Of a stretch of 10,763 nucleotides of DNA, positions 3,522 to 3,724 are shown one piece after another (the stretch's first letter is position 1; each line of letters begins with the position of its first letter). Location of the stretch: IMG/VR virus record IMGVR_UViG_2526164690_000049. One strand, written 5' to 3'. The notes beneath the pieces are model-generated. The model had not been told where the DNA came from and made no database searches. It saw only the letters and a list, made by a program, of their open reading frames with translations. A program made the translations under genes and the position numbers. Source of the stretch: a virus (taxonomy: Duplodnaviria > Heunggongvirae > Uroviricota > Caudoviricetes).

Positions 3522-3698
3522 GCGGCAAAAACTCAACCGTTTTTCATAAGGAAATCAGCAATCGCACCGATCGTTTTCCCGCCTGGTAATGAATATTGGC
3601 GAGAACATTAACAGGCGGAAAAGTGGCCCCAGCGTCCTGGCACCACGGGCGAGAATAATCATGATTCAGTTCGGGTAAAATATGCCGATCCTGTCAGT

Positions 3699-3724
3699 GA
3701 ACAACGTGGAACAACCACGAACAA
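3699..3724. repeat. Three 10-bp-phased GAACAA repeats (TTGTTC on the minus strand), candidate activator or replication-protein binding sites
   Basis: GAACAA at 3699-3704, 3709-3714 and 3719-3724 with exact 10-bp spacing. The first copy, AGTGAACAAC, resembles the origin iteron GGTGAACAG. A TATTTT -10-like hexamer lies on the minus strand at 3682-3677, 16 nt downstream of the proximal repeat. Confidence 0.5.

Follow-up and report, generated by a model that had tools for sequence, protein, structure and literature searches.

Recombination directionality factors (RDFs) bind direct repeats spaced by one turn of the helix and frequently act as transcription regulators as well, as described for Apl (PMC7498355) and Cox (PMC3936717). 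RdfS is another example of an RDF; proteins of its type assemble into filaments and compact DNA (PMC11963761), as do Cox-type proteins (PMC3936717). The closest precedent for the locus described here is the P4 promoter PLL, where three tandem 10-bp Cox boxes (P4 9176–9205) are located upstream of a weak late promoter. These boxes are bound by Cox, a small winged-helix RDF, with one protomer per turn, and the same protein also acts at att (PMC3936717). The sites of TorI, the RDF of prophage KplE1, adjoin integrase arm-type sites and influence a promoter (PMC2951348). In HE-PICIs, a doubled attP motif (tgTGTATTGCa x2) has been published as a probable integrase-arm or AlpA site (PMC10111431). The published roles of PICI AlpA comprise gene activation, positive autoregulation, and a need in excision and induction: it activates PICI genes and its own promoter (PMC6092414), and it is needed for the induction of EcCIEDL933 (bioRxiv 10.1101/2022.09.08.507074). 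AlpA is the described master activator of Gram-negative PICIs, and the literature searched contained no defined DNA site for PICI AlpA and no description of cf-PICI capsid-operon control, of the capsid switch-on, or of a late promoter. The present analysis provides a motif (TTGTTC with a 10-bp period), four island locations, and a promoter model with coordinates.

The window, which is the whole stretch of 10,763 nucleotides analysed, is identical (100%) to E. coli O157:H7 chromosomes over positions 3300–4200 and 98% identical to EDL933 over the same part, and it is therefore a capsid-forming PICI (cf-PICI) of the EcCIEDL933 type, which has been described previously (bioRxiv 10.1101/2022.09.08.507074). 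Its major genes are all on the minus strand, those for an SSB and a PerC-family protein included, and the landmarks are as follows.

10763–9546, minus strand: int
9172–8984, minus strand: alpA, encoding a winged-helix excisionase-type regulator of 62 aa (PF05930, E = 5e-18)
7181–5349, minus strand: P4-alpha-like D5 primase-helicase gene
4078–3776, minus strand: small ORF upstream of the array
3765–3741, minus strand: intrinsic terminator of the upstream early/replication operon, from hairpin/terminator prediction
2327–3484, minus strand: major capsid gene (ATG at 3484), first gene of the controlled operon, from Pfam
2287–1715, minus strand: protease gene, downstream of the capsid gene in the same operon
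1713–532, minus strand: portal gene, same operon
548–168, minus strand: head completion gene, same operon

The genes from capsid to head completion have Pfam matches to PF05065, PF04586, PF04860, and PF05521. The terminator at 3765–3741 insulates this operon from the upstream early/replication operon. The small ORF at 3776–4078 has 100 aa as an open frame and probably starts at an internal Met, which gives the 74 aa called by RefSeq. The 74-aa ORF belongs to phrog_1957 (function not assigned); in most, not all, cf-PICIs no other gene separates it from the array.

Two further control regions were seen elsewhere in the island. An origin lies downstream of the primase gene at 5113–5341, with approximately 10 copies of GGTGAACAGT in both orientations; this iteron is identical to the "ori type 1" repeats of P4 (GGTGAACAG), so the replicon is P4-alpha-like. 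At 8084–8121 on the minus strand, between a divergent YlcI/YnfO-family gene (8183–8488, plus strand) and an Icd-like gene, a probable early promoter (TTGGCG-17-TAACAT) shares positions with an inverted repeat, GTGTGTTTCATG/CATGAAACACAC, which is likely a repressor operator. The corresponding place in related islands holds TTGACG-17-TATAGT and direct repeats (GTGGGCCACACCT x2).

The repeats upstream of the capsid gene (array 1) very probably form a conserved protein-docking array of the capsid-operon promoter. They are located in the 290-bp gap from the small ORF to the capsid gene, between the early-operon terminator and the capsid-protease-portal operon, and belong to a set of elements in the following order.

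3725–3737, minus strand: invariant box TTTTGTAAATTAT, directly upstream of unit 1, from the comparison of related islands
3724–3719, 3714–3709 and 3704–3699, minus strand: array 1, three TTGTTC units, exact matches with a 10-bp period
3679–3674, minus strand: predicted −35 element TTTACC, at a fixed 16-bp spacing to the conserved −10
3657–3652, minus strand: predicted −10 element TATTCT (family consensus TATnYT), conserved in 22/22 variants
3646–3623, minus strand: 5'-proximal hairpin GTGGTGCCAG-GACG-CTGGGGCCAC, folding at −17 kcal/mol

On the plus strand, the units read GAACAA at 3699–3704, 3709–3714, and 3719–3724, with exactly 10 bp from start to start. The preliminary description had reported three GAACAA units at exact helical phasing, and this observation is borne out: 0.01 arrays of the form GAACAA-N4-GAACAA-N4-GAACAA are expected from dinucleotide shuffles of the window, and none of 200 shuffles reached the observed count. 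The single hexamer GAACAA is not enriched in the window (9 found against 7.3 expected). With the triple rare in shuffles and the lone hexamer at its ordinary frequency, it is the phasing that is non-random.

For comparison, capsid relatives were collected from species genomes and IMG/VR, giving 58 loci that represent 22 distinct versions from several genera. The order of elements is fixed across the 22 variants: the box TTTTGTAAATTAT, three 10-bp-phased units, 13–15 bp of unrelated sequence, the −35, a 16-bp spacer, TATnYT, and the hairpin. Conservation in related islands was one of the checks proposed in the preliminary description, and both the repeats and their phasing are conserved over the 58 loci. 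A block of ~45 bp, comprising the box and three units, is kept in diverged E. coli islands with unrelated flanks; these cf-PICIs retain TTTTGTAAATTAT-TTGTTC-N4-TTGTTC-N4-TTGTTC despite an unrelated upstream terminator and leader, and the box-plus-units block is also present in other genera. Moreover, among 5426 complete E. coli genomes, a 54-bp block is present in 526 (~10%), O157:H7 included. The type of unit follows lineage, with TTGTTC in E. coli and Shigella, (T)TTAC(C) in Citrobacter, Erwinia, and Rosenbergiella, and TTGTGC/TCTTTC/CTGTTC in a third lineage group, and all of these types fit a loose TTKTWC pattern. The distance from box and array to the hairpin is constant at 46–48 bp (within 2 bp), with unrelated sequence between them across lineages.

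The box TTTTGTAAATTAT occurs once per island, and the islands of E. coli, Shigella, Citrobacter, Erwinia, and Rosenbergiella have it in identical or nearly identical form, including those whose units are of another type. With respect to the predicted start, the box covers approximately −80 to −92, and it contains TTGTAA, 11 bp before unit 1, which is a possible "unit 0". The invariance of the box while the units vary suggests that a second factor may be involved, and such a factor might supply helper or host dependence. A divergent promoter out of the box, an IHF consensus, and the box as a −10 element were judged by eye and were unconvincing. In P4 (L078), a box-like sequence, CAATTTGTAATTTTTAT, is located at 9206–9222 and flanks the three Cox boxes of PLL.

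Variation around the block was also observed in individual islands. Divergent accessory genes (function not assigned) cluster directly upstream of the box (L006 9093–9599, L009 9307–9717, L010 8577–9685, and L060 ~8200–8760), and recombination at this accessory hot-spot swaps the box, array, and −35 along with the accessory gene, as seen between L065 and L009. In type B islands (L008, L009, L010, and L063), a strong terminator-like hairpin (CCCCTGTCTCTGACGGGGG and a T-run) is present ~30–60 bp after the box; it reaches into unit 3 and takes the place of the −35 region, and its L009 version shows compensatory changes.

The same kind of phased repeat was found at other places of the island, listed here with the ends of a related full island (L019).

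9490–9445, minus strand: array 2, with CAACAA, CAACAA, GAACAA, GAACAA, and (CGAAAA), from a phased search with a 10-bp period
~2440–2500 and ~17060–17140 of L019, outside the window: island ends, each with the doubled repeat in the same orientation and phased units before it

Array 2, which the preliminary description overlooked, lies between the int stop and alpA in the orientation opposite to array 1. It is conserved in related islands; int-alpA arrays hold 4–6 units, with up to 6 in other PICIs. The int-alpA arrays of L002 and L004 include a 25-mer, AACAACGTGGAACAACCACGAACAA, identical to that of array 1, and this sharing argues for one protein reading both arrays. Array 2 precedes the probable alpA promoter (TTGCCA-17-CACAAT, 9262–9234) by ~190 bp and is ahead of a terminator-like hairpin; this placement is not a textbook activator position. 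In addition, a perfect 16-bp palindrome, CAGTATGCGCATACTG, is located at 9512–9527, just past the int stop, and is kept in L002, L004, and L007, not in L003. As it has no T-run, it resembles a dimer operator more than a terminator, and it could be the site of a helper-phage signal on alpA.

At the island ends, both att arms of L019 carry TTGTTC-type phased units directly beside a doubled 12-bp repeat (GGTGTAGTCACT x2), and TTGTT-type phased units beside arm repeats are also present in L003, L004, L059, L093, L106, and L160. The doubled repeat changes with integrase clade while the TTGTT-type units stay: it is TGTGTATTGCA x2 in HE-PICI-type islands (L006 and L060), and GGTGTATCACTC, GTGTGGTCAGT, and GGTATCCTA in others. 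The attP core of P4 is likewise flanked on both sides by doubled arm repeats. The doubled 12-bp repeat is probably an integrase arm site, and the adjoining 10-bp-phased units would occupy the RDF-binding place. The doubled motif of HE-PICIs and P4 is found in the same islands and att regions as the TTGTTC units. However, the HE-PICI doubled motif has a 12-bp period, varies with integrase clade, and is absent upstream of the capsid gene, whereas the TTGTTC units have a 10-bp period.

The recurrence of the TTGTTC motif in the att arms and beside alpA suggests an RDF encoded by the island, and AlpA is the best candidate binder of array 1; the full statement, with AlpA as the binder, may be given an even chance. 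The sequence of AlpA matches PDB 8c3t (the GIsul2 excisionase) with E = 2.6e-6, and its single-sequence model (pLDDT 87) has 8c3t, RdfS, TorI (1z4h), and MerR-type wHTH proteins as top fold matches. Three hallmarks of an RDF operator are found together in these islands, namely at least three repeats one turn apart, the motif in the att arms, and an encoded winged-helix RDF-type protein. AlpA alleles accompanied by TTGTTC-type arrays have a helix pattern, [SC]R[ST]x[RA][YW], in common. Those of E. coli are 42–67% identical to one another and all occur with TTGTTC units, which is co-occurrence and no real covariation. In L009 and L010, where an HTH_17 excisionase-type gene replaces alpA, the units are of the TTAC type at both locations, ahead of the capsid gene and alongside the attL arm repeats. 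The HTH_17 protein of L065 is 98.5% identical to that of L009, yet L065 has the TTGTGC/TCTTTC/CTGTTC array, and in the alignment of the two islands the swapped cassette is exactly the accessory gene, box, array, and −35. This module shuffling in L065, together with the uniform motif within E. coli, blocks a clean covariation of regulator and motif. Moreover, a scan of viral contigs for the threefold TTGTTC pattern gave many unrelated matches, which are iterons beside primases, and such unrelated TTGTTC(C) iteron arrays mean that the motif is not diagnostic of AlpA. The preliminary description had listed AlpA, a 101-aa regulator, and the replication protein as candidate binders; the evidence favours AlpA over the replication protein, and the 101-aa protein, of the YlcI/YnfO family, adjoins its own likely operator, the inverted repeat at 8116–8084.

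The reading that competes best with AlpA keeps array 1 as a docking site of the capsid promoter and gives it another binder, which would be a helper-phage protein, a host winged-helix/nucleoid protein, or an unannotated island protein. This is rather unlikely, at something over one chance in five. The invariance of the box while the units vary is in its favour, as is the fact that the array type travels with the packaging/accessory cassette and not with the int-regulator module; in addition, the Cox boxes of P4 PLL, flanked by the box-like CAATTTGTAATTTTTAT, are bound by the RDF of the helper. The host candidates named are a response regulator of the OmpR/TorR type and Fis at the box and unit 1. 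The TorR box is CTGTTCATAT. The box with unit 1, GTAAATTATTTGTTC, fits a Fis-like pattern, G-N13-C with an A/T-rich centre. In contrast, a foreign binder is made less likely by the recurrence of the unit motif beside alpA and in the att arms of the island itself. Among the island's other proteins, the small conserved ORFs of the packaging module, rejected as binders, and the 74-aa ORF are without DNA-binding annotation. The PerC protein and the 74/82-aa upstream ORF were also rejected, as they are not universal among array-bearing islands: the 74-aa ORF is missing from some of them, and PerC is absent from L001, L002, and L005.

Whichever protein binds, the position of the array relative to the promoter can be read from the conserved elements. 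Since TATnYT and the hairpin stay equally far from the array across unrelated intervening sequence, TTTACC is read as the −35 and TATTCT as the −10. The capsid promoter is more likely TTTACC-16 bp-TATTCT, from which we infer a start near 3646–3644, at the foot of the hairpin. The −35 is TTTAC(A/C) across the family (TTTACA in L001-type and L060-type islands), with TTTATC or TTTTCT in a few; the 16-bp spacer is exact across variants, and TATnYT lies 5–6 nt before the conserved hairpin. With this start, the units are centred near −56.5, −66.5, and −76.5, which is probably a class-I-like position and no substitute for a −35. The predicted promoter is weak, with 8/12 consensus matches, and a sigma-70 consensus scan of 3300–4200 found no site with at least 9/12. 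A weak promoter behind a good upstream terminator fits an operon that needs an activator. As in activator-dependent sigma-70 promoters, the −35 and −10 are sub-consensus, properly spaced, and conserved among relatives, and, as with class-I-like activators, the upstream sites lie on one DNA face at a fixed distance to the −10.

The preliminary description had placed the promoter differently, with TATTTT (3682–3677, minus strand) as the −10, the proximal TTGTTC as a poor −35, and the other units at −45 and −55. The TATTTT hexamer is present, TTGTTC at 3704–3699 is 16 bp from it as stated there, and the two hexamers match the consensus at 3/6 and 4/6 positions. However, TATTTT lacks conservation: the corresponding place reads GATGTTTACAT (GATGTTTAC) in L001-type islands, type B islands have a terminator there, and in the window the hexamer overlaps the probable −35 TTTACC. 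On the other hand, TTTAC(A/C)-16-TATnYT is kept in every variant and abuts the conserved hairpin, which puts the units near −57/−67/−77 instead of −35/−45/−55. The earlier geometry is therefore improbable. The broader proposal of an activator-dependent late promoter survives in its outline, in that an array precedes the weak late (capsid) promoter and a terminator isolates the capsid operon, and fails in its placement of the −10 and −35.

Downstream of the predicted start, the capsid leader (3485–3646, ~160 nt) is strongly structured. Beyond the 5'-proximal hairpin, it contains the following parts.

3622–3485, minus strand: rest of the structured leader, with z = −3.5 for the leader fold
3622–3574, minus strand: long second hairpin, from folding
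3521–3492, minus strand: third hairpin with a sequestered AGGA ribosome-binding site (z = −4.5), followed by T7 and the capsid ATG (3484)

Over 9 variants of the 5' hairpin, 96% of cells are paired, four pairs are changed on both sides, and the GACG loop is invariant; the inner stem is altered on both sides between lineages. The third hairpin and T7 are found only in the window-type leader, and the L001-type leader is without them. An Rfam search of 3300–4200 gave only a sub-threshold chance match. The leader structure suggests translational or stability control added to the control of the promoter.

It is very improbable that the arrays serve recombination or DNA architecture only, as arm-type sites or RDF filament sites that bridge the island, with no role in capsid transcription. 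The same motif is indeed present at both att arms, and Cox-type and RdfS-type proteins form filaments (PMC3936717, PMC11963761). However, more than 6 kb separates array 1 from each att site, the spacing between the array and the −10 and hairpin varies by no more than 2 bp, and the units are constant across integrase clades while the doubled 12-bp motif changes. Array 1 as a set of integrase arm sites was rejected on the same distance from att and because the units are unchanged across integrases that are 41–49% identical.

The replication initiator, which the preliminary description had offered as an alternative binder on the likeness of unit 1 to the iteron, can hardly be credited as the protein reading array 1, since this likeness is limited to unit 1 and its flank (GTGAACA in common with GGTGAACAGT, 7/10 positions), the iteron is not matched by the other two units, unit 1 of relatives reads CCGAACAA or CTGAACAG, and islands whose replicase is of the DUF927 or RepA type (RepA-helicase) have the same array. 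In favour of the initiator are the partial match of unit 1 and the primase-adjacent arrays of unrelated viral contigs.

Other known types of late control were also considered for this locus. Q-like antitermination by AlpA was rejected, as the repeats lie upstream of the −35, the spacer differs by lineage, and P. aeruginosa AlpA is dissimilar. A conserved leader terminator for a Q-type unit was likewise rejected, because the T7 hairpin is restricted to the window type and holds the ribosome-binding site. For a late promoter of the Ogr/Delta type, the TGT-N12-ACA dyad expected near −55 was not found in 3600–3800.

In the mechanism proposed here, the helper phage would induce alpA, and AlpA would then occupy the TTGTTC arrays at the island ends, where it would act in excision, and upstream of alpA. 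On array 1, the small winged-helix protein would dock head-to-tail, with one protomer per DNA turn, on the three units and probably the box (about −57 to −90). From this class-I-like position, AlpA would recruit or stabilise RNA polymerase at the weak sigma-70 promoter of the capsid and packaging genes. A wider statement can be made tentatively and is doubtful as a whole, at somewhat under one chance in three: the TTGTTC-N4 arrays may define the AlpA regulon of E. coli cf-PICIs, in which a single RDF-type filament protein would couple excision, its own expression, and the switch-on of capsid and packaging genes through the box and three units, with a second factor at the box.

Several known systems resemble parts of this arrangement. 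P. aeruginosa AlpA, a Q-like antiterminator, shares with the island protein its name and a small predicted winged helix, and its target operon is likewise preceded by a structured leader; the hairpin and T-run before the first gene are a likeness limited to the window-type leader. In contrast, its element GGGACG-N5-GGTA sits between −35 and −10 (PMC7969949), and the protein has no sequence match to the island AlpA and is not among its top 50 fold matches. TorI at attL/PintS of KplE1 has the excisionase fold, as AlpA does, and three sites with a 10-bp period, whose cores GTTCG/GATCG/GTCCG are similar to TTGTTC(G). However, TorI represses intS from sites abutting the −35, whereas the capsid array lies further upstream of a structural-gene promoter, where activation is expected. 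P4 PLL, like the capsid array, presents a satellite with tandem 10-bp direct repeats before a weak late promoter. The two differ in motif (TTAAAG/CNCA in P4 and TTGTTC here) and in binder, which is the RDF of the helper in P4 and probably the island's own AlpA here. Moreover, PLL needs Ogr/Delta at TGT-N12-ACA, which is absent here, and drives vis and the replication genes instead of a capsid operon. The AlpA proteins of EcCICFT073, EcCIEDL933, and EcCIMP1 and the Vis protein of P4 belong to the same family, PF05930, as the AlpA of this island. Compared with these systems, array 1 is a testable switch of a familiar kind and involves no new mechanism.
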